Positions 10,820-51,409 of a stretch of 64,000 nt of DNA are shown one piece after another. Under the pieces are notes generated by a model. The model was not told where the DNA came from, did no database searches, and worked only from the letters and a program-made list of their open reading frames with translations. Origin of the DNA: Clostridia bacterium (GTDB lineage Bacteria; Bacillota; Clostridia; Christensenellales; Aristaeellaceae); contig JAFRFY010000111.1 of the NCBI GenBank assembly GCA_017434085.1, positions 3,878-67,877 on the forward strand, in the 5' to 3' direction. The position numbers were made by a program, and so were the translations under genes. Position 1 is the first letter of the stretch; each line of letters begins with the position of its first letter.

Positions 10820-13800
10820 AGGGCGAAGCGGCCGCGGAGACGGATGCCGTCCCCGTGGAGGATGCCGTTCCCGAGACGCAGTATGAATACGTTGACGCCG
10901 GGGACGGCGACGCGGACGTTGCGGACGACGCGGCGCTTGAGGCGGAGTATGTGGCGGCGGAGCCCGTCGAGGCGGAGCACCGCGTCGTCGAGATCGAGGC
11001 GGACGCTTTCTCCATCTACGGCATATGCTATACCGTCGACTACGAGTTCAACGGTTTCGTATGGCGCATGAACGGCGGTTCGTCGATCTGGCTGTCGCGG
11101 CTGCTGGCGCGGCTGAACGCCGATTTCGGCGTAGAGGATGTGCGGGAGGCGACGTTCTCCGATCCGGCCCTGCTTGCGGTGACCTACGACGCGGAGGAGC
11201 GCGACTGGTATCTGAGCAGCCTGACCCCGTTTACCAGCGAGGAGACGCTGACGCTGACCCTTCTGGACGGCGAGGCCGTCGAAATCAGGGTGACGGACAC
11301 GCAGGATCTGCAGGACATCGAGGAATTCCTGACCGAAGCGGAATTTCTGCTGGACGGCGTTCACGTGGGCGGCTCGTCCGATCCGGACCCCATGGAGGTG
11401 CGCACCGCGCATATCTACCGCCTGAGCCTGGTCTTTCAGGAAGAAGAGGAAGGCCGTCAATTCCCCGACAGCGGCGGCATGATATACGAACTGCCCGAAG
11501 GGATCGACTGGCGGCTTTTGGATGGAACTGTAACCACCTTCGACATCGTTCTGGGCAAAAAGGACACGCTGTATCCTCAGCGGGTGGACATGGGAGATCC
11601 CGGAAAAATCGGCGAACGATTTGGATGCCAATACCCACTATACCTATGTCATTTCCTACTGGACCGAGACGGATCGCACGATGGTCAAGAGGGGCTTTAT
11701 CCGCAATCACGTGGAGGAGAGCATCGCCGGGCTGACGCGCGACAGGGTGCAGCATTTCCCCGGAAAGACCTCGACGCATATCGAGGTCGACAAGGAATGG
11801 GTCAAGGATGAAATCGTACCGGGCTCAGGCGGTGCTGACGACAAGGTGTACAGCCAGTGGCGCATCTCGTTTAAGCGGCCCATCGGCGGCCTGGAGCGCG
11901 CGCTGGCGGAGGACATGCTGCCCTATTCCTGAATTATACAGAAGATGGTGTGGAGAAACAGCGGCTGGTCATCGAGGATACGTTTGCGATCAGTACTACC
12001 CGAAAGAGGTGGTGACGCCCGAGGGGCACCTGAAGGAGGACATCATCTGGCGGTTCATCATCGGCGACAACGACGACTGGGGGAACTATGGTGAGGATTA
12101 CGAGGGCAGGGAAGTCGAGTTTGAGCTGTACGCGGACGGCAAGAAGTTCAATCTGACCGACGGCGAGGGAGGAAACGCCAGAGGCAATCTTGTGCTGCCC
12201 AGAATCAAGGAAGACGGAGGCAAGGAATGGCAGATCACGGTGGACACGCTGCCGATGTACAAAATCGTCAACGGCATGCAGACGTCCACCCCGATCGCCT
12301 GGACCGTCAGGGAGGTCGGCGCGACCTACGCCATGGGGGCAGGCGGTTCGGATATCGTCGCCTCCGGCGTTTACCTGGAGGAGCATTTTACCGTCGAGGC
12401 TGCGGGTAAGGATGAAACGACTGGCGTCACGCCCTTTGATGGCGACGGATATGTCAAATTCACAAACACGCTCAATTCCCAGACCACGGTGAGGGTCATC
12501 AAGGATTGGCCCGACCTGAATGAAGAGGAGAAGGCGAACAAGACGGGGTCGGTCTATTTCGACCTGTACCGGACGACCGTTGAGACGGAGGCGGAGAGCC
12601 GGGATACAGAAGGCGCTCAAAAGGTCATCGGGGATATCGCGCTGAACGCGGGAAACAACTGGACCTACGAAAACAACCTGCTGGAAAACAGAAACGATAT
12701 GACAGGCGATCTGTGGTACTATTTCGCGGTCGAGCATTCTGTGGCGGGATATACCACCACATACGGTATCAATAAAGAAACGAGCAAGACGCAGAACATT
12801 ACCATTACCAATGAAGTGGACGGCGGTGTTCCCGTACCCATCTCAGAGAAGGAGACCGTTGACGGCGAGGATGTCATCGTCGACGACTGCGCGGTCAAGG
12901 TCGATGTTGAGAAGGACACAACCAAGGAAGTCACAATCAGAAATACATATTCTTCGGGAACGAACCCCACGACGAGCTGGAGGTCACGCAGAAAATTGAC
13001 GTGCCCGTGCAGAAGCTGCTGAACGGGCGATTTGACTTGGGCGAAGGTGGGACGGGGACATATCCGCCCTTCCTGTTCGCGCTGTTCGACGGCGACGGCA
13101 ACCCCATACGGTACAATAGCGGCGATAAGGTGCCGGTGACCACCACGGTCAACGGCGTGGAGACAACTGAAGAAATGTACAAGCAGGTCACGGTGTGGAG
13201 CGATGAGCACGGCAAAGCGTCGTTTGACCTGGATGGCATCACCAACAATGAAGGTGACCCGTACATCGACCTGACCCGGATGCGCTGGTGGGACGACGAG
13301 AAGAAGCTGTACGGCAAGTACACCTTCTATATCATGGAGCAGGAGGACCGGAAGGAAGGGGATTCCTACAACGGCATCACCAACGTGACCGAATCGGCCA
13401 AGGCCGTGCTGAACGTGTACTACGACTGGCTGACGGGCAAGATATTCTACCTGAATGACCACCTGTATAATCCCCCGGAGGGAGAGGCGCCGTATCGGAT
13501 CACCGTGGGCACCAGGACGAACGATACCTACCATTCCGTGAATATCAACACGGTCAGGAAGGTCTGGGACGACGACGACAACCGCGACGGATTGAGGCCG
13601 GATCAGACCGTCACAGTGAAGCTGGTTGCGAAGGTCGGAAATGAAGAGATATCCTACGCGCAATTAGGCCATGAGGAAAGCTATTTCACGAAGGAACTGA
13701 CAATATCAAATGCCGACACTGAGAACCCCAATATCTGGGTGCTCAATAATGTCAATTGGACGGGCTTGCCGAAGTATTATGAAGGCAAGCTGATCGAGTA

Positions 13801-14275
13801 TACCCTTTTGGAGACGCCGGATTTCAGCACGTACAGTGATCAGACGCAAACGGTGGCTCTCACAAAGGACGAAACCAACAGCACCACGCAGAATCATACA
13901 TACAACGGCGCGCTGACCAACACCCACACGCCGCAGACGGTTGACATCTCGGCAAACAAGGCATGGAACCACAGCGGAAACAGCATTGAACATTATCCCA
14001 TCACGGCGAAGCTGTGCCTTGTCGCAACGGTGGACGGCTCGGAGGCGAACACCACGACAAAGGCGGCCATCGCGGGAAATAACTTCGAATGGGAAAAGAC
14101 GCTGACGTTCGCCAGCGCCGATGCTCAGCAAACCGTGGATTGGGGCAATCTTCCGTGCTATGTGCCCGGGCGCGAGGGCGCGGAGATCACTTACAGCGTG
14201 GCGGAGGTAGAGCTCAGGGACAACGCCAACAACGTGCTGGACGGCTACCCCTCAAGTTTCCGTGAAGAACCTGTT

Positions 14276-14959
14276 TCAGCGCTGGAGCGCGATATCCACG
14301 CACTCCCGGAGATCGGCGATCTCATATTCCGCGTGAACGCCGTCGGGCAGCGCCTTGCCGTGGGGATTGAGCCAGCAGGCGTCGATGCCGGCGTTGTTCG
14401 CGCCGCGGATGTCGCTGTTGACGCCGTCGCCGATCATCAGCGCGTCGCGGGGCGCGGCCCCCTGCCGCTCCAGCGCCAGCAAAAACAGCTCGGGCCGGGG
14501 CTTCGACGCGCCCACCTCCTCGGAGATCACCACGTCGGCGACGTACCGCGTCAGCGGCGAGCGGGCGAAGCGACTTTTCTGGACGGTCGTGATGCCGTTG
14601 GTGACGATCACCACCGGCAGCGCCGCGGCGATCGTCCGCACCACGTCCAGCGCGTGGGGCAGCAGTATGCTCTGCTCGCCCAGCAGCTTGACGAAGCGCT
14701 CCGCCGCCCAAGCCGGGTCGCCCGGCACCGGGTAGCGCGCAAAGAAGCGGGCGAAGCGCTCCCGCCGCAGCGCATTCTGGGTGAGCCGCCCCTGCTCCAG
14801 CTCCGCCCAGCATTCGAGGTTACACGCCTCGTACTGCTCGTAGCGGTCGGGGTCGCGGTAGCCCAGCTCGTCCATCAGGCGGTCCACCGCGATACGGTTC
14901 CCCGCCTGGAAGTCCATCAGCGTGTCGTCGTTGTCGAAGAGTATGACCTTGTAGCGCAT
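14276..14959 (-). CDS. HAD-superfamily hydrolase (subfamily IA, YjjG-like nucleotidase type)
   Basis: 227 aa. Motif I ILFDNDDTL, motif II VIVTNG, motif III/IV K...GDGVNSDIRG. Confidence 0.85.
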   Translation of the reverse strand: MRYKVILFDNDDTLMDFQAGNRIAVDRLMDELGYRDPDRYEQYEACNLECWAELEQGRLTQNALRRERFARFFARYPVPGDPAWAAERFVKLLGEQSILLPHALDVVRTIAAALPVVIVTNGITTVQKSRFARSPLTRYVADVVISEEVGASKPRPELFLLALERQGAAPRDALMIGDGVNSDIRGANNAGIDACWLNPHGKALPDGVHAEYEIADLRECVDIALQR

Positions 14960-15041
14960 GGCGAAGCCCCTTTCGGTACCGGCGTCCGTGTTTTCACGGA
15001 ACCATTATAGCACGCCGGGGTCGCCGGGGCAAGGCGGTCAT

Positions 15042-15429: not shown

Positions 15430-16044
15430 TCAGGCTTCGGCGACGGCCTTCTTCATGTGCTCCGCGGCGCTGGCGGCCTTGTCGAGGGCGCTGTTGATGT
15501 CCCCCCGGCCGAGCTCCCTGCCCTCGAAGCTGTAGCGGCAGCCCGCGAACAGGCCGATCACCAACAGCGGCACGCATACCCAGAAGGCGCACAGCAGGAG
15601 CGGTACCAGCACCGTCAGCGGCAGGCGCAACACGGTCTCGCCGCCGCGCCGCACCACCAGGCGGTTGCGGTTGCCGCAGGCCACGGCCTTGCGGATGTGT
15701 CGGCCCAGGCCCTTGCGGCTCCGGCGGCGCTTCGCGGATTCGACGCGCGCGGGCTCGTCGGATTCGGCGGCCTGCGCGTCCGAGGCGATCTCATCGGTCG
15801 TGGCGGCCTGCGCGTCGGGGGCGATCTCATCGGCAGCCTCCTCCTCGGGCGCGTACTGCACCGCCATGCCCTCGCAGCCCGACGCCACCTCGTTGAGCTC
15901 CTGCATCCTGCGGAACTGCTCCTGCTCCAGCAGGTGCGTCGCGGTGAGCATGTTCCAGTCGCCGGCCTCCAGGGTGTTCCGGGCCTTCTCCAGGGTCACA
16001 TTGCACTTCTCAGAGAGCTTCTCAGCCATTTCATACTGCGTCAT
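15430..16044 (-). CDS. UBA-like N-terminal domain + DUF4342-like membrane-associated C-terminal domain protein
   Basis: The ORF reaches 16104, but ATG 16044 (MTQYEMAEKL) has a GGAGGA RBS. It contains a 2 x 36-bp tandem repeat (15766-15837, DEIA(S/P)DAQAA). The C-terminal string NRLVVRRGGETVLRLPLTVLVPLLLCAFWVCVPLLVIGLF is typical of DUF4342. Confidence 0.65.
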   Translation of the reverse strand: MTQYEMAEKLSEKCNVTLEKARNTLEAGDWNMLTATHLLEQEQFRRMQELNEVASGCEGMAVQYAPEEEAADEIAPDAQAATTDEIASDAQAAESDEPARVESAKRRRSRKGLGRHIRKAVACGNRNRLVVRRGGETVLRLPLTVLVPLLLCAFWVCVPLLVIGLFAGCRYSFEGRELGRGDINSALDKAASAAEHMKKAVAEA

Positions 16045-16147
16045 GGTCTTTGTCCTCCGTTCGATTTGATGGACACAGTATAACCCATGAACATGAAATG
16101 GCAAGAAAACAGGATTAGAGAAAGATTAGAAAAGAAGGAAAACGATT

Positions 16148-17158
16148 TCAGTTTTGCGATGCGCCCGTGGCGGCGCGGTACACCCTCAGCGCGCTGGGGA
16201 AGGCCAGGGCGTCGAGGTCGTCGGCGGGGGCGTAATCCGGGGGATAGGCCGCGCATATGGCGCGCCAGCCCCGCATGTGCCAGACCAGATGGGTGAACAC
16301 GTGCTTCGCGTCGGGCAGGGGTTCCAGTATCTCGACCCCCGAGAAGCCCTTTTCCCCGAGAAGGGCGGGCAGCGCGTCCCGGCCGGGATGCCCCTCCAGC
16401 GCGACGAATTCATACAGCCCGCCCAGCAGGCCCCGGGGACGGCGGCGCACCAGCGTCCGGTCGCCGCAGGTGATCAGCAGGATCGTCCAGTCCTGCCGCT
16501 TCTTTGCGACGGGCGCGCGCCTGCGGGGGTAGTCGAGGGCGGCGTCCTCCCGGCAGGCGACGCACCACGGCCTGACCGGGCAGCTGTCGCAGTCCGGCCG
16601 CTTCGGGAGGCAGATGGTGGCCCCCAGGTCCATCAGCGCCTGGTTGTAGTCGCCGGGGCGGTCCTTTGAGATCAGCTCGAGGGCCGGGGAGAGCAGGTCG
16701 AAGGGAGTCTTTAACGGCTCCTCCCAGGCCAGCAGCCGGGAGAGCACCCGCGCCTGGTTGCCGTCCAGCGCCGGGGCGACCTCCCCGTAGGCGATGGAGG
16801 CGATGGCGTTGGCTGCGTAGGGGCCGATGCCGGGTAGCCTCCGAAGCCCCGCGGCGTCGGCGGGAAAGGCCCCGCCCGAGGCCGCCACGGCCTTTGCCGC
16901 CGCGTGCAGGTTGCGGGCCCGGGAGTAGTAGCCCAGGCCCTCCCACAGCTTGAGCACCTCGTCCTCCCCGGCTGCCGCCAGCGCTTCCACCGTGGGGAAG
17001 CGAGCCAGGAAGCGGGCGTAGTAGCCCTTCACCGTCTCGGTCTGGGTCTGCTGGAGCATGATCTCCGAAAGCCAGATCCGGTAGGGGTCGCGGACGCCGC
17101 GCCAGGGCAGGTCGCGGCGGTTCTGGTCGTACCAGATGAGAAGGGTTTGTGAAAACAT
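16148..17158 (-). CDS. mutY: A/G-specific adenine DNA glycosylase
   Basis: 336 aa. N-terminus WYDQNRRDLPWR...YRIWLSEIMLQQTQ, HhH-GPD region, 4Fe-4S loop CLPKRPDCDSCPVRPWCVAC, and a NUDIX-like C-terminal domain. Confidence 0.9.
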   Translation of the reverse strand: MFSQTLLIWYDQNRRDLPWRGVRDPYRIWLSEIMLQQTQTETVKGYYARFLARFPTVEALAAAGEDEVLKLWEGLGYYSRARNLHAAAKAVAASGGAFPADAAGLRRLPGIGPYAANAIASIAYGEVAPALDGNQARVLSRLLAWEEPLKTPFDLLSPALELISKDRPGDYNQALMDLGATICLPKRPDCDSCPVRPWCVACREDAALDYPRRRAPVAKKRQDWTILLITCGDRTLVRRRPRGLLGGLYEFVALEGHPGRDALPALLGEKGFSGVEILEPLPDAKHVFTHLVWHMRGWRAICAAYPPDYAPADDLDALAFPSALRVYRAATGASQN

Positions 17159-17196
17159 AGGGGGATACCTCGGAGAGTGGAGAATAAACAGACAAA

Positions 17197-17218
17197 CCCC
17201 GCGCGTGATGGCGCGGGG
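17197..17218 (-). terminator. Intrinsic terminator after the capA-like gene
   Basis: CCCCGCGC-GTGATG-GCGCGGGG; on the minus strand it is followed by UUUGUCUGUUUAUU. Confidence 0.6.
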
Positions 17219-17233
17219 CTGGTTTGTTTTGTT

Positions 17234-18532
17234 TTATTCCGCCGATATGGTGGCCACGTCGGTGCCCATGATGTTTTGGATCTCGGACCACACGCCGCGC
17301 ATGCGGGTGACGTCGGTGTAGGCCATGTTTTCGGGCTGGTCCTCGCGCCACTGGCCCACCGCCAGGGTATGGTAGGCGTAATTGTCGCCCTCGCCCTGCG
17401 CGCGCCAGACGTAGGTCGGGATGTAGGTCGGCGCGGTGATGGTGTACTTGCCGGTGGCGGGGCCGGTCTCCTGGATGGTGAAATCGAATATGATGCCGGA
17501 GTCGAAGTACTGGTCGCGCTGGTCGGACAGGAAGTTGCCGGCGGAGCACAGTATCAGCGTGCGGTGCACGTTGCCCTCGGCGTCCTTCGGGCCGTCCACC
17601 CACGCGGCGGGCTGCACGCAGTGGGGGCCGTAGCCGATGATCACGTCCACGCCTGCCTTGACCAGCACCTTCATGATGGTCTTCTGGTTGGCGGTGATGT
17701 CGCGCTTGAGCATCTTGCCCCAGCTGACGTAGCACACGATCACGTCCGCGCCCGCCTCACGGGCCGCCTTGACGTCCGCGCTGGCGTTGGACTTGGTGAC
17801 CAGGTTCACGGCGTTCAAAAGGCTCTTGGACGCCTCCTTCTCCTTGCCGCCCAAATCCTCGGTGTAGGCCAGGAAGGCCACCTTGATGCCGTTGATATCC
17901 TCGATGACAGGGGTTTTCTTTTCCTCGGCGGAGGCCGCCGCGCCGATGTAGGCCATGTCGGCGTCCTTGAGGTTCTGCAGGGTGGCCTTGAGCTCCTCCG
18001 CGCCGCCGTCCAGGGCGTGGTCGTTGGCGAGCGTCAGCATGTCCACGCCGCAGTCCTTGAGCGTGTCGATCAGCGAGGGCGGGGTGATCATCTCGGAGAG
18101 GTTGCCCTTGACCCCGGCGACGCCGCCCAGCGTGCCCTCCACGTCGGCCACGGTGTAGTCCGCGTTGCCCATGATTTCGCTGACGTAGCTGAACATCTCG
18201 CTGAAGTCGAAGTCGTTGCCGTTGGCCACGGATTTGAGCAGGTTGAGCTGCATGGCGATCTCGCCCAGAGACCGTATCCTGGCGCTCTTCGGCTCAGGCT
18301 CCGGCGTGGGGGAGGGGGACGGCGACGGCGACGGCGTGGGCGTCACGCTGGCCGGATCAATGGTGGGCGTGGGCGTTTCCTTCACGAAGGGGCTGTCCAT
18401 ACCGCCGAAGGGGTTGAACACCACCATCACCACCACGCCAATTATAATAAGTAAGAGTATCGCCAATGTAATCAGGCCCAGCGGCGTGATGCGGTATTTG
18501 CCGATCCGCAAGCCCTTTACCGGTTTTGACAT
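17234..18532 (-). CDS. CapA/PGA_cap family metallophosphatase-like protein, membrane anchored
   Basis: The ORF reaches 18697, but ATG 18532 (MSKPVKG) has a GGAGG RBS. It has an N-terminal TM helix, a PTP-rich linker, and CapA-type motifs (GNADYTVADVEG, LANDHALDGG, VSWG). Confidence 0.8.
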   Translation of the reverse strand: MSKPVKGLRIGKYRITPLGLITLAILLLIIIGVVVMVVFNPFGGMDSPFVKETPTPTIDPASVTPTPSPSPSPSPTPEPEPKSARIRSLGEIAMQLNLLKSVANGNDFDFSEMFSYVSEIMGNADYTVADVEGTLGGVAGVKGNLSEMITPPSLIDTLKDCGVDMLTLANDHALDGGAEELKATLQNLKDADMAYIGAAASAEEKKTPVIEDINGIKVAFLAYTEDLGGKEKEASKSLLNAVNLVTKSNASADVKAAREAGADVIVCYVSWGKMLKRDITANQKTIMKVLVKAGVDVIIGYGPHCVQPAAWVDGPKDAEGNVHRTLILCSAGNFLSDQRDQYFDSGIIFDFTIQETGPATGKYTITAPTYIPTYVWRAQGEGDNYAYHTLAVGQWREDQPENMAYTDVTRMRGVWSEIQNIMGTDVATISAE

Positions 18533-18715
18533 AACACTACCTCCAATAATGCCGTAATGATTCCGCAAAATTATGGATATATTATAACACAATCGAAATT
18601 CGCAGGCAATGGAAGAATGTGATCTTTCGGCATATTTTTTGCGAAAATATTTCGATGTGTGACGAAACTGTTGCATTAAATTATGACAAAATTTCACTTT
18701 TTGTGCTCTAACCGA

Positions 18716-18744
18716 TTGACATTGCCCAATAGATGTTGTATGCT
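18716..18744 (+). promoter_or_regulatory. Sigma-70-type promoter of the 1124-aa repeat protein gene
   Basis: TTGACA (18716-21), 17-nt spacer, TATGCT (18739-44). It sits in an AT-rich divergent intergenic region and is followed by the direct repeat CTTGTAATGGCA x2 (18743-54, 18768-80). Confidence 0.45.
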
Positions 18745-18846
18745 TGTAATGGCATCAAGTATCATAGCTTTGTAATGGCAGCCGCCGCTGCCCGTGAAGC
18801 CGTCCGGCGCGCCTGCGCGGACGCGGAAATATAAGGTGGTAAAAAT

Positions 18847-21800
18847 ATGGCAACACATGCGATTGGAAAATTGAAATTCAATCTGTCGAAGCAGGGTCTG
18901 GCCTACCGCTGGGGCGAGGGCGAGATCCATCGGCTGTTTGCCGGAAGGCCCAAGGCGGGCGACGCGGATAATAATGAGGAGAATTACACCGGCTACGAGG
19001 GCGAGGACTACGACGCCGACTACGCCGATGACAACTACGCCGACCCCGGCTACGACGACAACTACGCCGACGACGGCGGGGACGACGGCTATGCCGACGA
19101 CCCCGGCTTTGACGACGGCTACGACGACGGCTACGACGACGGCAGGGACGACGGCTATGCCGACGATCCCGGCTACGACGACGGCTATGACGACGACGCG
19201 AACGCCGGCGACAGGTATGACGACGGCTACGACGACGGCTACGACGACGAGGCCTACGACGAGGGCGACGGCTACGACGATTCCGGCGAGTACGACGACC
19301 GCTATTCCGACGCGGACGCCGGCGACGGCTACGGCGAGGAGGGCTACTACGCCAGCGAGAGCCCGCTGATGCGGTATGTGGACGAGAACGACTGGGTCAC
19401 CTTCCTGCTGCTGTTCCTGTTCCCGCCGCTGGGCATCTACCTGCTGTGGCGCAGGAACCGTTTCGACAAGCCCATACGCTACGCCATCAGCGCGGTGTCG
19501 GCCATATGGTTCATCGTGGCGCTGATACTGCTGTTCCACAACCTGTTCGGCGGGGCCAGCGACAATCCCACCGACGCCACCATCACCCTCGCGCCCTCCG
19601 CCACGGTTTCGGCGCTGAACCTGGACGGCTCCACCGGGTCCGATCTGGACCTGACGGTGGACAACCTGGGGGATACCTCCGGGGACGAGACCGGCGATGA
19701 GACCGGCGACGAGGCGGACGACGCCGACGAAGGCGGCAGCGAGACCGCCGTGGCGCCCTCGCCCACGCCGCTGACCGGCTCCAGCGCCACCGGCGCGGCC
19801 ACCAGCTCGGCCTACGTGTACAGCCCGGCCACCGGATTGTACTATCACAGCAAGAGCGACTGTACCAACATCGACAAGGGCGTGTCGGTCTCCCGCGTGC
19901 CCAAGGACGTCGCGGAGAACAACCGCAAGCAGTCCGCCTGCCCGGTGTGTATCGGCGCGGCGGAGGACGGCGACACCACCACCTACTACGCCACCCGCGG
20001 CGGCACCTACTACCACGTGGACCGCACCTGCCAGGGCATGACCGACGCCACCGTCTACACCAAGGAGGCGGCCGAGCGCGCGGGCAAGACGCCCTGCCCG
20101 GTCTGCATACTCAAGACCGCCCAGAGCCTGAAATCCGGCTCGGTGAAGTTCATCACCTCCTCCACGAAGGACCGGAGCAACATCAACGTCTACTACACCA
20201 AGAAGGGCAAGTACTACCACATGACCGCCACCTGCTCCGGCATGACCGGCGCGTCCCGCAACTCGTTGAAGAACGCGCTGCTGGCCGGCAAGGAGGCCTG
20301 CCCCACCTGCTGCAAGGCGGCGGGCAGCGATGTGTACTGCACCAAGAACGGCGAGAAGTACCATCTGGACAAGGCCTGCTCCGGCATGACCAACGCCATG
20401 GAGGTCACGCTGGCCGAGGCCATGGTCATGGGCAAGAAGCGCTGCGACGTGTGTATCAAGAGCGGCGCGCTGCCCACCGCCAGCCAGCTGGCCAAGCAGT
20501 CCGAGGAGAATTCGCTGGACACCTACGTGTACGGCACGCCCAAGGGCCAGTATTATCACACGGATCAATACTGCTCCGGCATGAAGGACGCCCAGCGCTA
20601 CACGCTCAAGTCCATGCTGCTGCAGAAGCGCGCCCCCTGCCCGGTGTGCGCCTCGGCGTCCAACACCGTGGTCTACGCCAAGGAGGGCGGCACCTACTAC
20701 CACAGCTACGCCACCTGCTCCGGCATGAGCAACGCCTCCAGTGGCACCATGGCCCAGGCCATCGCCGCGGGCTACAAGCGCTGCCCGCGCTGCTGGAGCG
20801 AGACCGGCACCACCGGCACGCTGTCCACGGGCGTGGCGTCCACCACCTCCGCGGCGGCCACCGCCACGGCGGGCAACACCTACGTGTACGCCACCCAGGC
20901 GGGCTCCTACTACCACCTGACCAGCAACTGCTCCGGCATGAAGAACGCCAGCCGCATCACATTGAAGCAGGCCATCGATGCCGGGAAGAAGGCGTGCCCC
21001 ACCTGCGCGGGGGCGGCGAACCGAAAGGTGTATTCCACCAAGGAGGGCAAGAACTACCACTCCGCCCCGGCCTGCAAGGAATCCGGCATGAAGAACGGCG
21101 AGGCGCGCACGCTGGCACAGGCGCTGATGCTGAACCAGACCGCGTGCAAGTACTGCATCGGCAAAAAGAGCAGCGCGTCGTCGTCGAAGAGCTCGGCGAA
21201 GAAGGCCAGCAGCAAGACCGTGGAATCCATCAAGAACGCGGCTAAGAAGCTCAAGAACAGCCACACCTACAAGAGCGGCAAATCGGGCATCAAGGTCTAC
21301 GCCCGGGCCGACGGCAAGTACTACCACCGCAGGAAGAACTGCTCCGGCATGACCCACGCCAGCCGCATCACGCTTGAACAGGCGATGAACTACGGCAAGC
21401 GCGCCTGCCCGGTGTGCTGCTCGACGGCGCGGCGCACGGTGTACGCCACGCGGGGCGGCAGGTATTACCACTACAGCAAGACCCATGCGGGCTCCGGCGC
21501 GAAGAGGGGCTCGCTGGCCTCCGCGCTGGGCTACGGCTACGATCCCTGCCCGTACTGCGTCACCAAGACCAAGCGCCTCTCCCGCGTGGCCAGCTACAAG
21601 TCCGGCACCAGCGGCATCAAGGTCTACACCACCGCGGGCGGCAAGTATTACCACTCCAAGCGGGGCTGCTCGGATATGAAGAATCCCTCCCGGGTGACGC
21701 TGGAGACCGCCATGAACTACGGCAAGAAGCCCTGCCCGAAGTGCATGGCCACCGCCAGCAAGAAGGTGTACGCCTCCTCCGGCGACCGGTACTACCACTA

Positions 21801-22221
21801 CTACAAGATGCACGCCGGCGCGGGGGCCCAGGCGGGCACGCTGGCCCAGGCCAGGGCGTTGGGCAAGAAGCTCTGCCCCACCTGCGCCAAGGGCAAGACC
21901 GTGGGCATCACGCTGAGCGACAAGCAGGCCAAGAACGTCAGCAAGGCCGTGGCCGCCGCCCAGAAGCTGGGCACCGGCATCTCCGCCAAGAGCGCCATCG
22001 CCTACAGCAAGGCCCTGGCCTCGCAGACCAAGTACTCCGCCCCCGGCACCACCAAGGTGTACGTCGATTTGCAGGGCAAGCAGTATTACTACTACCACAA
22101 GTCCTCCAAGTGCTCCAAGACGGGCATGAAGAAGGGCACCAAGATCACCCTGCAATACGCCAGGGACTGGGGCTATAAGGCCTGCCCGTTCTGCCAGCCG
22201 CCGACGAGCGTGGCGAAATAG
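18847..22221 (+). CDS. Large membrane protein: poly-acidic Asp/Gly/Tyr N-terminal region, 2 TM helices, 13 tandem YYH-x4-C-x(19-23)-C-P-x-C modules (Ada-like / Zn-ribbon-like)
   Basis: 1124 aa. AAGGTGG RBS. N-terminal aa ~35-170 consist of DDGYDD-type repeats. TM helices: WVTFLLLFLFPPLGIYLLW and AISAVSAIWFIVALILLF. From aa ~325 there are 13 modules such as GGTYYHVDRTCQGMTDATVYTKEAAERAGKTPCPVC. A strong terminator lies at 22237-22266. Confidence 0.85.
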   Translation: MATHAIGKLKFNLSKQGLAYRWGEGEIHRLFAGRPKAGDADNNEENYTGYEGEDYDADYADDNYADPGYDDNYADDGGDDGYADDPGFDDGYDDGYDDGRDDGYADDPGYDDGYDDDANAGDRYDDGYDDGYDDEAYDEGDGYDDSGEYDDRYSDADAGDGYGEEGYYASESPLMRYVDENDWVTFLLLFLFPPLGIYLLWRRNRFDKPIRYAISAVSAIWFIVALILLFHNLFGGASDNPTDATITLAPSATVSALNLDGSTGSDLDLTVDNLGDTSGDETGDETGDEADDADEGGSETAVAPSPTPLTGSSATGAATSSAYVYSPATGLYYHSKSDCTNIDKGVSVSRVPKDVAENNRKQSACPVCIGAAEDGDTTTYYATRGGTYYHVDRTCQGMTDATVYTKEAAERAGKTPCPVCILKTAQSLKSGSVKFITSSTKDRSNINVYYTKKGKYYHMTATCSGMTGASRNSLKNALLAGKEACPTCCKAAGSDVYCTKNGEKYHLDKACSGMTNAMEVTLAEAMVMGKKRCDVCIKSGALPTASQLAKQSEENSLDTYVYGTPKGQYYHTDQYCSGMKDAQRYTLKSMLLQKRAPCPVCASASNTVVYAKEGGTYYHSYATCSGMSNASSGTMAQAIAAGYKRCPRCWSETGTTGTLSTGVASTTSAAATATAGNTYVYATQAGSYYHLTSNCSGMKNASRITLKQAIDAGKKACPTCAGAANRKVYSTKEGKNYHSAPACKESGMKNGEARTLAQALMLNQTACKYCIGKKSSASSSKSSAKKASSKTVESIKNAAKKLKNSHTYKSGKSGIKVYARADGKYYHRRKNCSGMTHASRITLEQAMNYGKRACPVCCSTARRTVYATRGGRYYHYSKTHAGSGAKRGSLASALGYGYDPCPYCVTKTKRLSRVASYKSGTSGIKVYTTAGGKYYHSKRGCSDMKNPSRVTLETAMNYGKKPCPKCMATASKKVYASSGDRYYHYYKMHAGAGAQAGTLAQARALGKKLCPTCAKGKTVGITLSDKQAKNVSKAVAAAQKLGTGISAKSAIAYSKALASQTKYSAPGTTKVYVDLQGKQYYYYHKSSKCSKTGMKKGTKITLQYARDWGYKACPFCQPPTSVAK

Positions 22222-22236
22222 GGCGAAAGAAGAACG

Positions 22237-22266
22237 ACAGGGACCGCGAAAAATCGCGGTCCCTGT
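22237..22266. terminator. Bidirectional terminator between the repeat protein gene and cobO
   Basis: ACAGGGACCGCG-AAAAAT-CGCGGTCCCTGT is a perfect 12-bp stem followed by TGTTGT. Confidence 0.65.
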
Positions 22267-22287
22267 TGTTGTGACAAACCGATTTGA

Positions 22288-22812
<525 letters not shown>

Positions 22813-22814
22813 GT

Positions 22815-23384
22815 TCAAACCTCCTGAAAGCGCGCGGGCCGTCCGTCGGCCACGTCGATTTTGTACCCTCCGCAGGGCCCGGGCTGCCACTGGTAGAAGT
22901 TGCGCGCCTCCCCCGGGAACCACGCCTGCATCAGGTTGACGATCACCCCGCCGTGGCACACCGCGCAGGCGGTTTTTTCCGTAAGTGCGATGAGCCGCGC
23001 GCCGTCATTAAGCACCCGCGCTTTGAAGGTGCTCAGGTTCTCCCCGCCGGGGCAGCGTACCGTCCCCGTCCGATCCCCGATCCAGTTCATATAGGCGGGA
23101 TCGTCCTTCAACTGTTCATAGGAGCGCATCTCGAACGCGCCGAAGTCCATCTCACGAAGCCCGGGCAGCGCGAAATCGGCATCCCGGCCCGTCATCAGGC
23201 GGAGGGTCTCGTCGGCGCGGCGCATGCCGCTGGAGACGTACACGTCGCAGGGGGGGACGGCGCCCCGCCGTTTAAGCGCGATCTCCTGGCCCTCGGCGGT
23301 GAGGGGGCTGTCGGTGCTGCCGCCGTAGAGCCTCAGGGCGTTGGCCTCGGTCAGGCTGTGCCGGATCAGATAGAGCGTATTCAT
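22815..23384 (-). CDS. cobC: Histidine phosphatase family protein (alpha-ribazole phosphatase type)
   Basis: True start is ATG 23384 (MNTLYLIRHSLTEAN), in an ATGA overlap with the upstream gene. RH catalytic motif, a second His in CHGGVI, and cob gene context. Confidence 0.8.
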   Translation of the reverse strand: MNTLYLIRHSLTEANALRLYGGSTDSPLTAEGQEIALKRRGAVPPCDVYVSSGMRRADETLRLMTGRDADFALPGLREMDFGAFEMRSYEQLKDDPAYMNWIGDRTGTVRCPGGENLSTFKARVLNDGARLIALTEKTACAVCHGGVIVNLMQAWFPGEARNFYQWQPGPCGGYKIDVADGRPARFQEV

Positions 23385-23746
23385 TTGAGCCTCTGGGGGA
23401 TGCCGCAGAACAGCCGCCAGACCTCGTCCGACTGGGACGCCAGATAGCTGTTCATGCGCCCGCAGGCCTCCCGCCAGGCGCGCAGCACCGGGTCCATGGG
23501 CACGACGCCGCCGGAGATGTCCGTGGTGATGACCACGCTGTCCCGAAGCGCGTCGATGTGTGCCCGGAAGAGGTCCGCGGGCTCTTTCCCCGCCCGGACT
23601 TCCTCCAGCGCCCAGCGCTCCACGTAGGCCAGGCATTTTTTGTCAAAATCCACCCCGCCCAGGCAGATGTCCGCGTCCGTAAACCCGAACCGCGCCTTCG
23701 CGTAGCTCAACTTGCCCTGATAACTCCCGCCGGTGATCAGTATCAT
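23381..23746 (-). CDS. Truncated CobU-like protein (degenerate P-loop, middle region missing)
   Basis: 121 aa. N-terminus MILITGGSYQGKL versus CobU MILVTGGARSGKS. C-terminus VVITTDISGGVVPMD...DEVWRLFCGIPQRLK matches the CobU C-terminus. The segment that carries the guanylyl-His in CobU is absent. Confidence 0.65.
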   Translation of the reverse strand: MILITGGSYQGKLSYAKARFGFTDADICLGGVDFDKKCLAYVERWALEEVRAGKEPADLFRAHIDALRDSVVITTDISGGVVPMDPVLRAWREACGRMNSYLASQSDEVWRLFCGIPQRLK

Positions 23747-23761
23747 GGAAACCTCCTGAAT

Positions 23762-24049
23762 CTACCCGTTCTTCCTCGCAAATTCAATCAACATCCCCAT
23801 CCGCTCGGCCACCTCCCGCGCGATTGGTATGCGGGCGTAGTCGGCGCGGAGGGCGTCGAGCTCGTCGAGGGCGTCCGTGAACTCCTCCGCGGAGTCGTCG
23901 GCCTTCGGGTCGATCTGGGACAGCATGAAAAGCGCGTCCTCGAGCTCGGCGTTGAGCTCCTCCATGTCCTCGCCGTCGGCGATATCATCCAGCACCGCCA
24001 AAATCTCCCTGAACCGCGCCTCGTATTCCGCGATGGGCAGCATGGGCAT
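23762..24049 (-). CDS. Small acidic helical protein, unknown function
   Basis: 95 aa. GGGAGTGG RBS. Highly acidic (DDIADGEDMEELNAELEDAL). Lies 15 nt upstream of the CobU-like gene. Confidence 0.5.
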   Translation of the reverse strand: MPMLPIAEYEARFREILAVLDDIADGEDMEELNAELEDALFMLSQIDPKADDSAEEFTDALDELDALRADYARIPIAREVAERMGMLIEFARKNG

Positions 24050-44073: not shown

Positions 44074-46062
44074 CTACCAGACGAAGCGCTCGCCTTCGCC
44101 CTCGGCGAACGGCCCGGGCAGGGTGTCCAGCCCGCGATGGGCGCCGAAGTAGTCCCGGTCGAAGGTGATGGGCGTGCCGTCGGGGTTCTCGAAGCGCTGC
44201 TCCGGCTCAAAGGCGCAGCCCAGCGTGTCGCTGGTGACGATGCCGTCCCGGAAATCCCCCAGGAAGTCGTAGACATTGGTTTTGAGCACCGGCCTTCCGT
44301 CCTTTTCGACGATTTCGACCGTCACCTTCGCGTCGCGGTCCGCCAGGCCGTGCGCCTCGTGTCTGCTGACGGTGGCGCCGTTGAAGTAGGCGTTGCCCGA
44401 CACCCACACCGGCAGGTGGCCGAAGTGGAACTGCGCGAGATGCCGCATGTCCGGCTCCCTGCCCATCATGAAGTTGGAGATCCAATCCTCATAGCTCGGG
44501 AAGATGTCGAAGCACGCGGTGCCCGCCACCTCGTAATCGTTGTTCTGCGGCGTCCTGGCGCCGTCGGTGACGGGCCATTTCTGCACGAATATGTTATTGT
44601 AGACGCGGTCGTCGCCGTGCAGTATGGTCATGAAGCCCGCGACCTCGGTGCGGTGCCTTATGTGGTAGGGGGTGTAGCGGGGCTCGCGCTGGCCGTTGAC
44701 CACGCTGTCCACGCCGGAGTTGATCAGGCCGAACGCGCCGCAGATCAGGTTGTGCACAAAGGCGACGCCCTCGCTGGGGATGGCCGCGGACAGCTTCGAC
44801 AGCATCACGTTGTTGTCGATGAGCGTCGGGCCGTGGCCCACCTCGATGAACACGTCGTTGTTGAACATCGCGCCCTCGGCCAGCGGCGTGCCCTCGGGCC
44901 GCTGGTTGTCGTGCAGCAGGTTCTGGCTGATGCGCGCGCCCTGGGCCTCCCAGTCCAGCCACACGCCCATGATGCAGTGGTGGATGTGGTTGCGGCGGAT
45001 GGTGACGTCGATGGCGGCGTGCAGCTTGATGCCCGCCGTCTCCGCGCCGCCGAGCTGCTGGGAGTTGCACACGTGGTGGATGTGGCAGTCCTCGATGGTG
45101 GAGAACACCGCGCCCATGCGGCCCACGATGCCGGTCTGCTCGCAGTGGTGCACGTGGCAGCGGCGGATGATGTGGCCGCCCACCTTCTCCTTGAGCCAGC
45201 CGTGGTACTGGCCGCGGCACACGGCGTCGCGCTCCATCTGGGTGGGGGACTTGACGTGCTTCGTGTAGAAGTACATGTCGTTCTCGGGGTCGCGGTACTT
45301 GCCCAGCGAGATGCCGCAGCACTTGCTGCCCCAGACTGCGCAGTCCTCGATGATCCAGCCCTTCGACCAGTGCGGCCCGATCAGGCCGTCCTGGTACGCC
45401 GCGGGCGGGGCCCAGGTGGTCGCGCCCTTGTTGATGTCGAAGCCGGACACGGTGATGTAGTTGATACCGTTTTCATCGGGCATGAAGCAGTTGCGCCGAA
45501 CCAGTATCTCCACCTTCTGTGCGTTGGGGTCAAGACCCTTGAAGTTGGCGTAGAGCACCGTCTCGTTCCCGTCCTGCTCGGTATACCACTTCCAGGTCGA
45601 CAGTTCGGCGTCGAACGCGCAGGGGTCGGCCTCTGCCTTCTCGCATTCCTCCAGCGTGACGGTCTCGTACATCATGCGGTCGTTGAGGAACACCGCGCCG
45701 GTGTGGCGCACGGTGGGGGCGAAGTACCAGTCGCCGCAGACCATCTCGGTATACGGGTTGTAGCGCCCGAATACGCCGTTGTCCACGCGGTTGACCCACA
45801 CGTCGCCCTTGAAGGGCTTCCAGCCGGTCAGCGGCTCCGCGCCGGTGATCACCGCGCCCAGGGGTTCCTCGGAGCGGTAGACGATGCGCTTATCCTCCGT
45901 GCCGCCGTGGCGGGGGGTCACCTTCTCGCGGTAGACGCCCGGCGCGACGAGGATCTCATCCCCCGCCACGGCCACGCGCGCCGCGTCGTCGATGTGCCTA
46001 AAGGGCATGGCCCTGGAGCCGTTGCCGTCCCGGGATGCGTTGGCGTTGACGTAGAGTATCAT
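44074..46062 (-). CDS. Cytoplasmic right-handed parallel beta-helix repeat protein (polysaccharide lyase/hydrolase-like)
   Basis: 662 aa, GAGGAGG RBS, no signal peptide. N-terminal cap DGNGSRAMPFRHIDDAARVAVAGDEILVAPGVY is typical of beta-helix enzymes. Three consecutive coils carry CHVHHC, CHIHHVC and NHIHHC. Confidence 0.75.
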   Translation of the reverse strand: MILYVNANASRDGNGSRAMPFRHIDDAARVAVAGDEILVAPGVYREKVTPRHGGTEDKRIVYRSEEPLGAVITGAEPLTGWKPFKGDVWVNRVDNGVFGRYNPYTEMVCGDWYFAPTVRHTGAVFLNDRMMYETVTLEECEKAEADPCAFDAELSTWKWYTEQDGNETVLYANFKGLDPNAQKVEILVRRNCFMPDENGINYITVSGFDINKGATTWAPPAAYQDGLIGPHWSKGWIIEDCAVWGSKCCGISLGKYRDPENDMYFYTKHVKSPTQMERDAVCRGQYHGWLKEKVGGHIIRRCHVHHCEQTGIVGRMGAVFSTIEDCHIHHVCNSQQLGGAETAGIKLHAAIDVTIRRNHIHHCIMGVWLDWEAQGARISQNLLHDNQRPEGTPLAEGAMFNNDVFIEVGHGPTLIDNNVMLSKLSAAIPSEGVAFVHNLICGAFGLINSGVDSVVNGQREPRYTPYHIRHRTEVAGFMTILHGDDRVYNNIFVQKWPVTDGARTPQNNDYEVAGTACFDIFPSYEDWISNFMMGREPDMRHLAQFHFGHLPVWVSGNAYFNGATVSRHEAHGLADRDAKVTVEIVEKDGRPVLKTNVYDFLGDFRDGIVTSDTLGCAFEPEQRFENPDGTPITFDRDYFGAHRGLDTLPGPFAEGEGERFVW

Positions 46063-46095
46063 AATCCGTTTCCTCCTCGTTTCAATGATTGCAGA

Positions 46096-46983
46096 TCAGC
46101 CCTTGACCGCGCCGGCCATCATGCCCTTGACCAGCTTGTCCTGGAAGATGATGAAAAGTATGATCATCGGAAGCGCCGAGAGCACCAGCACCGCGAGCAT
46201 CAGCGGCATGTCCATGGCGTGCTCGCCCTTGAACTGGCCCAGCGCCAGCGGCAGCGTCTTCTGGTCGGCCGACAGCAGCAGCGTATTCGCAAAGGCGAAC
46301 TCGTTCCACATCGAGACGCCGTTGTAGATGGCCAGCGTGCTGAGGCCCGATTTGGACAGCGGCAGTATGATGCGGAAGAACATGCTGTACTTGTTGCAGC
46401 CGTCGATGACCGCGGCCTCCTCGACCTCGCGGGGGATGGTCATCATGAAGCCGGTCAGTATGAATACCGCCATCGGCAGCGCGAAGGCCACGTATGGCCC
46501 GATCAGCGCGTACTTGTTGTCATACAGGCCCATCCAGTTGGTCATCTTGAAGATCGGTATCAGCGTCACGTGCATCGGGATCGACATCATGGCGATGATG
46601 CCGGCATAGATCAAGTTGCGCAGCCTGAACTTCATGCGCGAGAGCGGATAGGCCGCGAAGGACGATATGATCAGCATCAGCACCAGCGAGATGGCCACGA
46701 TCAGCACCGAGCGGGCGAAATAGCCGAAGAAGCCGTTTTGTATGATGTTCGGGTAGTTTGCAAAATACCAGGGCTCCGGCAGGTGGAACACGCCCTGCAC
46801 GAACATGTCAAACTGCTTGCGAAAGGAGTTGAAGACCATAAAGGCGAAGGGAACCAGCGCGATCAGCATCCAAAGGCACGCGAAAAACCACGCAAAGCCC
46901 CACGCGACGCGGCTCTTGACCCGCTCGCGCCGGTACTTTCGCTCGTCAAGCTGTTGCTGCGCCAATTTGACATCGTTGGTCAT
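46096..46983 (-). CDS. Carbohydrate ABC transporter permease (MalG-like)
   Basis: 295 aa, 6 TM. EAA-type loop EEAAVIDGCNKYSMFFRIILPL. Confidence 0.9.
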   Translation of the reverse strand: MTNDVKLAQQQLDERKYRRERVKSRVAWGFAWFFACLWMLIALVPFAFMVFNSFRKQFDMFVQGVFHLPEPWYFANYPNIIQNGFFGYFARSVLIVAISLVLMLIISSFAAYPLSRMKFRLRNLIYAGIIAMMSIPMHVTLIPIFKMTNWMGLYDNKYALIGPYVAFALPMAVFILTGFMMTIPREVEEAAVIDGCNKYSMFFRIILPLSKSGLSTLAIYNGVSMWNEFAFANTLLLSADQKTLPLALGQFKGEHAMDMPLMLAVLVLSALPMIILFIIFQDKLVKGMMAGAVKG

Positions 46984-46984
46984 G

Positions 46985-47896: not shown

Positions 47897-48077
47897 ATCG
47901 CATCCGCCTCCTTTTTGTTATCCTCCAATGCGCCCCGGCAACCGCCCGTCCACTGTGCGCTATCCGGTTGACCGTCGGCTGGCGCGGCGCATTCGATCGA
48001 CCTCATGCAAGAATACCCGCAGGGAAATTCCTGCGGGTATTCCGCACGTATGCCTAAGGCATTCCGTGTTCGCCTGA

Positions 48078-51380: not shown

Positions 51381-51409
51381 TTTGCCTTGTCACACCCCTG
51401 AGACAGTAT

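Follow-up and report, generated by a model that had tools for sequence, protein, structure and literature searches.

A conserved thirteen-module, probable cell-envelope protein with predicted Ada-like zinc fingers in uncultured Clostridia

Background

What might a bacterium do with thirteen tandem copies of a small His/Cys module, joined in one protein to a membrane anchor and a polyacidic tract? The question is raised by a gene in a 64,000-nucleotide stretch of contig JAFRFY010000111.1 (Clostridia bacterium, assembly GCA_017434085.1), the whole of which is referred to here as the window. The gene lies at 18847..22221 on the plus strand, begins with ATG and encodes 1124 amino acids (aa) and a stop, the position and length given in a first-pass annotation that had been made from the letters of the sequence. 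Its product was found to consist of a small beta-meander, a tract rich in Asp, Gly and Tyr (D/G/Y), a hairpin of two hydrophobic helices, an acidic Thr/Ser/Pro linker, and 13 modules. Full-length orthologues are 41-95% identical. The best explanation of the data is that this is a conserved cell-envelope protein of uncultured Christensenellales-type Clostridia, and its modules are predicted to fold like the N-terminal domain of Ada.

Ada is a methyltransferase of the adaptive response, and it uses a zinc-activated thiolate. Pei et al. 2025 (PMC12353581) defined an ECOD X-group of "ADA_N-like domains", whose functions "remain to be experimentally determined", and the group accepts members with altered or degenerate metal sites. 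The members described there are Cwp27 (Q188M7) and a ComEC/Rec2-family protein (Q187P0) of C. difficile, ArfC and O07219 of M. tuberculosis, and the tail of C. acnes RplD; Cwp27 and the ComEC/Rec2-family protein each have a signal peptide and a single C-terminal copy, and ArfC, likewise with a single C-terminal copy, has a transmembrane (TM) segment. The first-pass annotation had likened the modules to single-copy tails on secreted nucleases and metallo-beta-lactamase-fold proteins of Firmicutes, and for secreted Gram-positive metallo-beta-lactamase/ComEC-type proteins this agrees with that account. No further papers mentioning ADA_N-like domains were found in the literature searched.

Results and discussion

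Layout of the module array

The module consensus, xxxxVYxTxxGxYYHxxxxCSGMxxAxxxTLxxAxxxGKxxCPxC, was present in 13 copies, as first counted, compared with a mean of 0.02 and a maximum of 2 matches to the module pattern in 2000 composition-preserving shuffles. Among the other open reading frame (ORF) segments of the window that reach 100 aa, none had a match, and a scan of the window and 74 loci found only the 13-module gene and no other module-bearing ORFs. Spacing from one module start to the next was 56, 68, 48, 65, 48, 71, 48, 89, 48, 61, 48, and 100 aa, a range of 48-100 aa rather than the 45-75 aa reported at first, and modules 3-12 formed five tight pairs in an exact 48-aa register.

All of the modules are encoded on the plus strand. 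Module 1 (19804..19956, aa 320-370) is divergent and has a longer helix region, and module 2 (19972..20112, aa 376-422) follows it. The five pairs, designated A-B, are modules 3-4 (20176..20460, aa 444-490 and 492-538), 5-6 (20515..20799, aa 557-603 and 605-651), 7-8 (20872..21162, aa 676-722 and 724-772), 9-10 (21283..21564, aa 813-859 and 861-906), and 11-12 (21610..21891, aa 922-968 and 970-1015). Module 13 (22054..22200, aa 1070-1118), near the C-terminus, is also divergent and reads YYYYH...CSKTGM...DWGYKACPFCQP. When position-specific alignments were compared profile to profile, modules 3, 5, 7, 9, and 11 grouped together, modules 4, 6, and 8 grouped with 10 and 12, and modules 1, 2, and 13 were outliers. 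This grouping points to an array of the form 1 + 2 + (A-B)x5 + 13, which would have arisen by old duplications of a two-module unit.

Four residues per module are predicted to be metal ligands: His15, Cys20, Cys42, and Cys45. His15, Cys42, and Cys45 were invariant in 117 sequences of 13 modules each, a result to be read with the fact that they were partly used in defining the modules. The second ligand position was not pre-selected. It was Cys in all 117 sequences for modules 1-8 and 13, and in modules 9-12 it varied among Cys, His, Asp, and Glu alone, with one Arg exception; in the window protein the residue is His in modules 10 and 12, the two units in which a His in place of the first Cys had already been seen. 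Such a pattern of substitution is the behaviour expected of a metal ligand. Each module would bind one structural Zn2+, by a His-Cys3 set or, in some copies of modules 9-12, by His2-Cys2 or His-Asp-Cys2. All 40 Cys residues of the protein lie within the array and none in aa 1-319. Sites shared between neighbours, made of the CxxC of one module and the His/Cys pair of the next, were considered and rejected, because the first His/Cys pair and the last CxxC would then lack a partner and the sites would have to bridge linkers of 1-54 aa.

Conservation and selection

A search of 5.8 billion proteins returned 237 homologues, and the orthologue counts given here rest on the best 120 of these. The 120 proteins were 878-1206 aa long and 41-89% identical (BLASTP), all were unnamed or "hypothetical", and none had a Pfam domain. 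The comparison of repeat number proposed in the first-pass annotation gave exactly 13 modules in 116 of the 120, and among the four exceptions were clear fragments, P0108 for one. Every module position carried its own conserved signature, indicating that the modules are positionally orthologous.

The ratio of nonsynonymous to synonymous substitution rates (dN/dS) was measured against the two closest genomes (L006 and L007; 95% aa identity, dS 0.13-0.18). It was 0.19-0.21 for the whole gene, 0.14-0.17 for the module array, 0.03-0.19 for the membrane hairpin, ~0.3 for the acidic tract, and ~0.46 for the stalk that follows the hairpin. A value of ~0.57 against orthologues that were 68-70% identical was set aside because synonymous sites were near saturation and codon usage was GC-biased. 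Orthologues were intact in ~69 species-level genomes, and DNA identity among the modules was merely 60-76%. These data show that the gene is intact and under purifying selection. The possibility of a pseudogene or a recent expansion, raised when the gene was first described, was refuted by the fixed module number, the dN/dS values, the divergence of module DNA, and the position-specific signatures.

Predicted fold of the module and its relation to Ada

An AlphaFold 2 (AF2) model of the pair formed by modules 7-8, which was chosen for modelling, had a predicted local distance difference test score (pLDDT) of 94.1 and a predicted template modelling score (pTM) of 0.79. The order of elements in each module was strand-strand-strand-helix-strand, and the confidence of the model suggests a defined geometry between the two modules. 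In a full-length model all 13 modules had the same fold.

Three independent lines of evidence converged on an Ada-like fold. First, when the pair model was compared by Foldseek with BFVD, which holds predicted viral structures, it matched Ada-annotated phage proteins with a probability of 1.00 and a root-mean-square deviation (rmsd) of 0.9-1.6 A over 42-46 columns, at 35-45% identity. The annotations of these matches were "Metal binding domain of Ada", "DNA methyl phosphotriester repair domain protein", and "Ada-like Zn-binding domain protein", so that the structural check suggested in the first-pass annotation returned both a confident fold and Ada-annotated relatives. Second, four matches were found when the full-length model was compared with 350,542 PDB chains, and three of the four were the N-terminal domain of E. 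coli Ada (1zgw, 1u8b, and 1wpk), each individually non-significant (E = 2.7-8.2), with all four above E = 1. Third, a profile of 133 modules was aligned by hhalign with a profile of the E. coli K-12 Ada N-domain and 44 diverse homologues, giving a local P of 3.1e-4 and a probability of 39% over 19 columns that covered the helix and CxxC segment. None of 300 column-shuffled Ada profiles reached the observed score of 21.9 (mean 8.9, sd 2.1, maximum 19.6), and the reversed profile scored 9.9. In a global hhalign alignment, His15, Cys20, Cys42, and Cys45 corresponded to Ada Cys38, Cys42, Cys69, and Cys72.

Because these lines agree, the predicted fold is that of an Ada-N-like zinc finger, and the models place it in the ADA_N-like group, whose features it has: an Ada-type fold and four ligand positions in register, with His as ligand 1. 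The likeness to the Ada zinc-binding fold that had been proposed at the outset is thus real at the level of fold, by Foldseek, and modest but specific at the level of profiles. Three results count against the assignment. Foldseek of the pair model against PDB gave no match; the Pfam family of the Ada domain (PF02805, Ada_Zn_binding) was matched by only one of the 13 modules, at E = 0.043; and searches of PDB sequences with hidden Markov models (HMMs) of the modules missed Ada and returned chance matches alone. When 62 module pairs were searched, PF02805 did not rank in the 25 most frequently hit families, and the whole protein did not match it.

No Pfam or NCBIfam model covers the His-Cys3 module, and searches of both with the whole protein gave nothing meaningful. 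Matches to DUF5658 (E = 0.017, on the hairpin), FliH, and LAS2 were dismissed, the last two as spurious. ZNF512_C2HC, DnaJ_CXXCXGXG, and several Zn_ribbon families formed a weak and nonspecific scatter over modules and pairs that came from the CxxC spacing and sometimes crossed module boundaries. The label "Zn-ribbon-like", which had been attached to the modules earlier, did not hold: the first ligand pair (His-x4-Cys) comes after strand 2, the CxxC comes after a short post-helix strand in the model, the zinc-ribbon matches in Pfam were weak and scattered over many unrelated families, and the structural matches were Ada-type. The Ada N-domain itself has been likened to treble-clef zinc fingers, not zinc ribbons, with its second ligand pair in a short C-terminal helix (PMC12353581).

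The 13-module protein contained no helix-turn-helix (HTH) or methyltransferase domain by Pfam and NCBIfam. The residue aligned to Ada Cys38, which we take to be the phosphotriester methyl acceptor, was His in all 13 modules and all 117 sequences, and for this reason the modules are likely not methyl acceptors of the Ada type. The ECOD paper gives Cys69 as the methyl-accepting residue of the N-domain and expands ADA as "alkyladenine DNA glycosylase" (PMC12353581). The Cys69 position is retained in the modules, and which of the two Cys residues is the acceptor affects how the His substitution is read; repair chemistry has likely been lost, but this hinges on the same point. Whichever Cys is the acceptor, the modules sit in a non-repair context.

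The modules share with the ADA_N-like group a small zinc-finger fold in which strand 2 is followed by two ligands and the other two lie close to the domain's C-terminus, and in both cases the proteins carry signal peptides or TM anchors. The described members have single and mostly C-terminal copies, whereas here there are 13 in a fixed order with a duplicated two-module unit. Ligand 1 is invariably His here rather than Cys, and the 13-module protein further differs in its DUF4236-like N-terminus, polyacidic head, hairpin anchor, and CapA-like neighbour (see below). The E. coli Ada N-domain (PF02805; 1u8b, 1zgw, 1wpk, and 1eyf) has the same element order and the same four ligand positions, and its helix and CxxC segment is similar (TLxxAxxxGKxxCPxC in the module, xxxEALAAGFRPCKRC in Ada). 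However, Ada is cytoplasmic and has a single copy of the domain, with Cys4 ligands and a fusion to AraC-type HTH and methyltransferase domains, while the modules are without the N-terminal helix of Ada and do not reach the PF02805 threshold. For a single module, the nearest matches in both structure and sequence were phage Ada/DUF4236-annotated proteins (A0A8S5SJ74, A0A8S5NNA8, and A0A8S5PMT8; PHROG 14556), some of which pair DUF4236 with a module, like the two ends of the 13-module protein. The best of these matches covered about one module (42-59 columns) and a few poorer ones spanned 118-140 columns at an rmsd of 7-15 A; these phage proteins are, in contrast, presumably cytoplasmic.

The domain superfamily is a known and recently defined one. 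In the literature searched, no description was found of the His-Cys3 tandem-array form, of a fixed 13-module family with a DUF4236-like, polyacidic and hairpin part, of its invariant CapA-like partner, or of the anti-sigma association of related arrays.

N-terminal region, membrane hairpin and topology

The first 30 residues (MATHAIGKLKFNLSKQGLAYRWGEGEIHRL; 18847..18936, plus strand) were modelled by AF2 as a four-strand beta-meander (E4-6, E9-14, E17-22, and E28-30) with a pLDDT of ~67-76. This motif has a charge of +5, and M1, G7, and G17 are invariant. DUF4236 (PF14020) was the sole family matched by the N-termini of five of nine orthologues, all in the same register, at 12.8-17.9 bits (E = 0.004-0.17), which falls below the gathering score of 27 bits; the N-terminus of the window protein itself had no match to PF14020. 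Residues 1-30 are probably a divergent DUF4236 domain, a family for which nothing on function was found in the literature searched. Three gut phage entries in BFVD (A0A8S5PMT8, A0A8S5Q8A6, and A0A8S5MF86) are annotated as DUF4236 and also have an Ada-like module, a recurring domain pair.

The polyacidic tract (18955..19371, plus strand; aa 37-175) is predicted to be disordered by its composition and a pLDDT below 50, and AF2 placed the disordered segment at aa 32-171. Its near-pure D/G/Y character, pointed out in the first-pass annotation, was evident in its counts: 47 D, 24 G, and 23 Y among 139 residues, with a net charge of -54, ~20 units of the type D(D)(G/N/P)Y, and a degenerate 12-15-nt periodicity in the DNA. 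Among 116 orthologues, the head from aa 37 to helix 1 was 107-221 aa long and had a median net charge of -53 (range -75 to -19).

The membrane hairpin (19363..19548, plus strand; aa 173-234) was identified by hydropathy and by AF2 helices at 173-180, 182-191, 193-203, and 208-234. It contains hydrophobic helices at ~aa 182-203 and 208-234, separated by the short basic loop RRNRFDKPIRY (net +4), in line with the original description. Helix 1 (W183...PPLG...W201) has a break or kink in the AF2 model at an invariant PP, and W183, P193, P194, G196, and W201 are all invariant. The linker or stalk (19549..19803, plus strand; aa 235-319) is a disordered acidic stretch of Thr, Ser, Pro, Asp, and Gly, with a pLDDT below 50. 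Its 84 residues at aa 236-319 have a net charge of -18, and its richness in T/S/D/G matches the Thr/Asp/Gly linker first described.

In all 116 orthologues the loop between the helices was 8-12 aa long and contained 3-6 Lys/Arg (K/R). The 15 residues N-terminal of helix 1 had a median net charge of -4 and the residues after helix 2 a median of 0 Lys/Arg; as a calibration, the cytoplasmic flank of the anti-sigma-type relatives described below has a median of 6 Lys/Arg. Since the positive-inside rule, the Thr/Ser/Pro-rich linkers, and the architectures of paralogues all agree, the basic loop is predicted to be cytoplasmic and the stalk and array to be outside, and we regard the outside location of the array as quite probable. 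Both termini had been placed on the same, probably outer, side by the first-pass annotation. For the array this was sustained, by the loop charge in 116 orthologues and by the signal-peptide and anti-sigma-type paralogues; for the acidic head, the two sides of the membrane are roughly evenly split. The head, ~180 aa long, precedes the hairpin and has no signal peptide. A two-TM hairpin with its basic loop inside would put the head outside. Alternatively, helix 1 could be a re-entrant helix-break-helix and the head cytoplasmic, which would parallel the anti-sigma paralogues, with the N-terminal part in and the array out.

Distribution of the module and anti-sigma-type relatives

An exhaustive HMMER search with the 133-module profile was made against 1.84 billion representatives of clusters at 50% identity. 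Module-bearing representatives numbered 7,173 at E <= 1e-3, 793 at E <= 1e-10, and 198 at E <= 1e-30, and the top 150 had 3-19 matched stretches each. Within the top 150 there were 124 complete proteins from outside the 13-module family, which had one (90 proteins), two (13), or no (21) hydrophobic segments before the first module. Eighty of the 90 had a conserved ~40-aa N-terminus and then one TM helix, and the other 10 had signal peptides. Upstream DNA was available for three of the single-TM proteins (P0263, P0282, and P0266; L075 4514-8792, L077 3463-7294, and L078 751-4265, respectively), and all three genes start a few bases past the end of a gene for an extracytoplasmic function (ECF) sigma factor. 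Because an ECF sigma gene abuts them in the classic anti-sigma arrangement, the single-TM module proteins are considered a large class of putative ECF anti-sigma factors. No description of a module-array anti-sigma class was found in the literature searched.

These anti-sigma-type proteins, which make up ~80 of the top 150, resemble the 13-module protein in having tandem YYH...CSGM...CPxC modules, Pro/Thr/Ser linkers, and a membrane anchor on the N-terminal side with the array across the membrane. They differ in having a ~40-aa N-terminal domain, one TM helix, an adjacent ECF sigma gene, and anywhere from 3 to 19 modules, whereas the 13-module protein has the DUF4236-like motif, the 139-aa acidic tract, and two helices. 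It also has no sigma neighbour: no sigma-factor gene was found in the ~10 kb upstream or the 1.4 kb downstream of the gene in the window. The idea that anti-sigma-type arrays are collinear with the 13-module layout was rejected, as comparison showed that they are not.

Rare extra domains on module proteins were all extracytoplasmic (LytR_cpsA_psr, fn3, WG repeats, BspA-type leucine-rich repeats, and PT repeats). A phage family of unknown function, phrog_14556, has the module at its own C-terminal end (E = 1e-8), and tblastn of a module pair gave no match in a plasmid collection and none in the GenBank phage collection at E <= 0.01. The His-Cys3 version of the domain thus forms long tandem arrays and is abundant (7,173 representatives), and it appears to lie mostly outside the cytoplasmic membrane, often as the ectodomain of a putative anti-sigma factor.

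Genomic context, the CapA-like partner and hosts

Divergent from the 13-module gene is a minus-strand gene (17234..18532) whose CapA-like product is anchored by an N-terminal TM segment and continues with a Pro/Thr linker and a PGA_cap domain (PF09587, E = 3e-52). Its start at 18532 (MSKPVKG...) was inferred from the translation and a promoter-like site at 18609-18581. A CapA-like gene was found in the same divergent upstream position in 61 of the 61 orthologous loci with enough upstream sequence. Beyond it, in the window and in 49 of 55 orthologous loci, is a gene for a MutY-type glycosylase (HhH-GPD and NUDIX_4; 16148-17158, minus strand), and the genes 3' of the 13-module gene vary. In the window the MutY gene is followed by that of a DUF4342 protein (15430-16104, minus strand) and a CobO gene lies 3' of the 13-module gene; in four other loci (L001-L004) the flanking genes are unrelated to polyglutamate synthesis. 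Neither PgsB/CapB or PgsC/CapC genes adjoining the CapA-like gene nor nearby genes for metal transporters or regulators were found in the window or in these four loci.

The CapA-like protein resembles CapA/PgsA in having a full-length PGA_cap domain behind a TM anchor, and the locus differs from that system in the absence of adjoining PgsB/CapB and PgsC/CapC genes. In NCBIfam the protein matched MslH, a peptide epimerase for a lasso peptide, weakly (31 bits against a cut-off of 700), and no solved structure was detectable for it by sequence. CapA itself has been proposed to epimerise poly-Glu (Feng et al. 2020).

The head and PPLG hairpin recur in two more distant relatives, one of 16 modules (P0243) and one of 12 (P0250), whose genes also lie beside CapA-like and MutY genes. 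A 10-module subfamily (P0256; L081 2969-5584) shares the terminal module-13 type and has a ~180-aa Glu/Asp/Tyr head and a hairpin without PPLG; its gene comes after those for alanine racemase and AzlCD, with no CapA-like gene beside it.

A scan of GTDB species genomes found 69 loci, nearly all in metagenome-assembled genomes (MAGs) of uncultured Clostridia/Christensenellales. The hosts included Ca. Pullichristensenella, Ca. Faecivicinus, and Aristaeellaceae from rumen and from chicken, rabbit, and human gut, and one short contig (L036) was binned as Akkermansia sp. The window was ~94% identical over its best-matching segment to the rumen MAGs RUG11088 and RUG13574.

Proposed function and alternatives

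The proposed explanation is a composite one, a multivalent binding or sensing array of Ada-like modules on the cell surface with a polyanion as ligand and the CapA-like protein as partner. We hold its structural core with high confidence, and give the explanation as a whole a little less than an even chance. In this proposal, helix 2 would cross the membrane with the basic loop inside, and the acidic stalk and the array would be displayed outside the cytoplasmic membrane. The array would be a multivalent extracytoplasmic device for binding or sensing, neither a repair enzyme nor a metal store, in which two-module units serve as rigid binding elements with flexible linkers between them, and it would act jointly with the adjacent membrane-anchored CapA-like ectoenzyme. 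The ligand is the weakest step. The favoured candidate is a long polyanion with phosphodiester links along its backbone, for instance extracellular DNA or a wall glycopolymer, an analogy drawn because the Ada N-domain binds DNA (the PDB titles of its structures refer to DNA binding), because ADA_N-like domains are associated with the ComEC family, and because the array has a net charge of +83 here. We judge a ligand of this phosphodiester-type class less likely than not.

Three observations tell against the composite explanation. The net charge of the array was not kept among orthologues (median +31, range -18 to +93), so that a strongly basic array was rejected as a conserved feature, and anti-sigma-type arrays such as that of P0263 look acidic, which weakens purely electrostatic binding of a polyanion. 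Synteny with the CapA-like gene may partly reflect gene order across the lineage, since MutY was also kept in 49 of 55 loci. Finally, a hairpin with its C-terminus outside needs either the export of a 180-aa head without a signal peptide or a re-entrant helix 1.

Should the array prove to be a receptor or sensor at the surface, it would represent a new family of input domains that work outside the cytoplasm of uncultured gut anaerobes, and the 13-module family offers a concrete route to the role of ADA_N-like domains outside DNA repair. The practical gain would be a new domain model for annotation and testable sigma/anti-sigma systems.

The surviving alternative that fares best, though an unlikely one, is that the array is an extracytoplasmic chemical sensor in which the zinc-thiolate sites do the work. 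One or more modules would lose their zinc to oxidants, electrophiles or zinc starvation, the array would unfold, and the change would be read out by proteolysis or a change of conformation; the output would be release of the ECF sigma factor in the anti-sigma paralogues and, here, a signal through the hairpin and head or altered surface properties. The same module arrays do form the ectodomain, or signal-input part, of the putative ECF anti-sigma factors, the use of a zinc-activated thiolate by Ada is textbook chemistry, and sensing of external oxidants would be useful to the hosts, which are strictly anaerobic gut and rumen Clostridia. A zinc-Cys switch in an anti-sigma factor has a precedent in the zinc-associated anti-sigma (ZAS) factor RsrA (PMC3177212), though RsrA is cytoplasmic. 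However, the position of the reactive Cys38 of Ada is occupied by His, 13 position-specific modules in fixed number are ill-suited to a simple chemical fuse, and no recognisable cytoplasmic output domain was found in Pfam or NCBIfam.

Somewhat further from favour is a wholly cytoplasmic protein with both ends of the hairpin inside, which would be tethered to the membrane and bind chromosomal or incoming DNA or RNA. The lack of a signal peptide ahead of a 180-aa head, the basic array of the window orthologue, and the presumably cytoplasmic default location of Cys-rich zinc fingers, Ada, and the phage Ada-like/DUF4236 proteins all fit such a protein. This topology nevertheless violates the positive-inside rule, given the 3-6 K/R of the loop in every orthologue and the acidic or neutral flanks. 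The Thr/Ser/Pro-rich stalk and inter-module linkers are typical of exported proteins, and the closest relatives of the modules lie behind signal peptides or single TM anchors with the N-terminus inside.

It is improbable that function resides in the acidic head, with the array serving chiefly as a stalk or anchor. On that reading the CapA-like ectoenzyme would act on the D/G/Y tract, for instance as an epimerase, and the outcome would be an anchored polyanionic surface layer, a ribosomally made analogue of a poly-gamma-glutamate capsule. The pairing with a CapA-like gene in 61 of 61 loci, seen also in the 12- and 16-module relatives with this head and hairpin, would be explained, and the CapA family includes the peptide epimerase MslH as well as the enzyme proposed to epimerise poly-Glu. 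The acidity of the head was kept (-19 to -75) despite drift in its sequence and length, and the two-TM reading places the head outside, beside the CapA-like ectodomain. Set against this are the weakness of the MslH match (31 bits), the P0256 subfamily with its large acidic head but no CapA neighbour, and the constraint on the array, which was the greater (dN/dS 0.14-0.17 compared with ~0.3 for the head) and fits poorly with a passive stalk. A combined version is about as improbable: the CapA-like enzyme would epimerise or otherwise modify an exported head to give a ribosomally encoded, membrane-anchored, protease-resistant polyanionic coat, and the zinc array would be the rigid, ligand-binding arm that organises it.

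Metal buffering or capture at the surface, in which the 13 sites, perhaps together with the head and its many Asp residues, would serve as a store or trap for Zn, Fe, or Cu, had been suggested alongside polymer binding and mineral interaction, and of these it appears the least likely because the ligand sets look structural, being invariant or exchanged for other ligand residues. The 13 predicted sites per chain and a polycarboxylate head able to bind divalent cations speak for it, but the ligand positions lie in the folded core of a small, confidently modelled domain, where sites are normally structural, tight, and non-exchanging. Conservation of position-specific residues other than ligands is needless for storage, and the lack of metal transporter or regulator genes near the locus (window and L001-L004) also makes buffering very improbable. 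A low-complexity artefact, a pseudogene or a functionless, recently expanded repeat can be given almost no credence, as the low complexity of the D/G/Y tract at the DNA level and a long overlapping antisense ORF are outweighed by intact orthologues in ~69 species-level genomes with a fixed module number, a dN/dS of ~0.2, modules diverged to 60-76% DNA identity, and confident structural models.

Expression signals and other features of the window

Upstream of the 13-module gene there was a sigma-70-like promoter candidate on the plus strand (TTGACA-17-TATGCT, 18716..18744), identified by its consensus match alone (10 of 12 positions); a consensus scan found three promoter-type sites in the scanned region, with 0.8 expected. 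A Shine-Dalgarno sequence, AAGGTGG (18833..18839, plus strand), was read from the sequence 7 nt 5' of the ATG. Directly 3' of the stop is a 13-bp GC-rich inverted repeat (22237..22266), a possible bidirectional terminator for which the T-tail rule of the terminator scan was satisfied in the minus-strand orientation alone. Together, the promoter-like site, the Shine-Dalgarno sequence, and the downstream hairpin would bracket the gene as a monocistronic unit. No Rfam elements were found at 17000-24000 of the window. An ORF of 1153 aa (18694-22155, minus strand), with a high content of Ala, Gly, Arg, and Val, overlies the whole gene in antisense; it results from the high GC content of the coding strand and has no support as a gene.

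Elsewhere in the window, two adjacent genes for Cna_B-domain proteins (11808-15010, plus strand), which are pilin- or adhesin-like, had a GC content of 0.55-0.58 compared with ~0.64 for the window. The region at 44077-57024 contained ordinary chromosomal genes, partly of lower GC content (0.57-0.59), which encode a GH120-like beta-helix hydrolase, an ABC sugar transporter (two permeases and a binding protein), GGDEF and PAS-GGDEF-EAL proteins, a DAG-kinase-like protein, and a Wzy_C O-antigen-ligase-like membrane protein.

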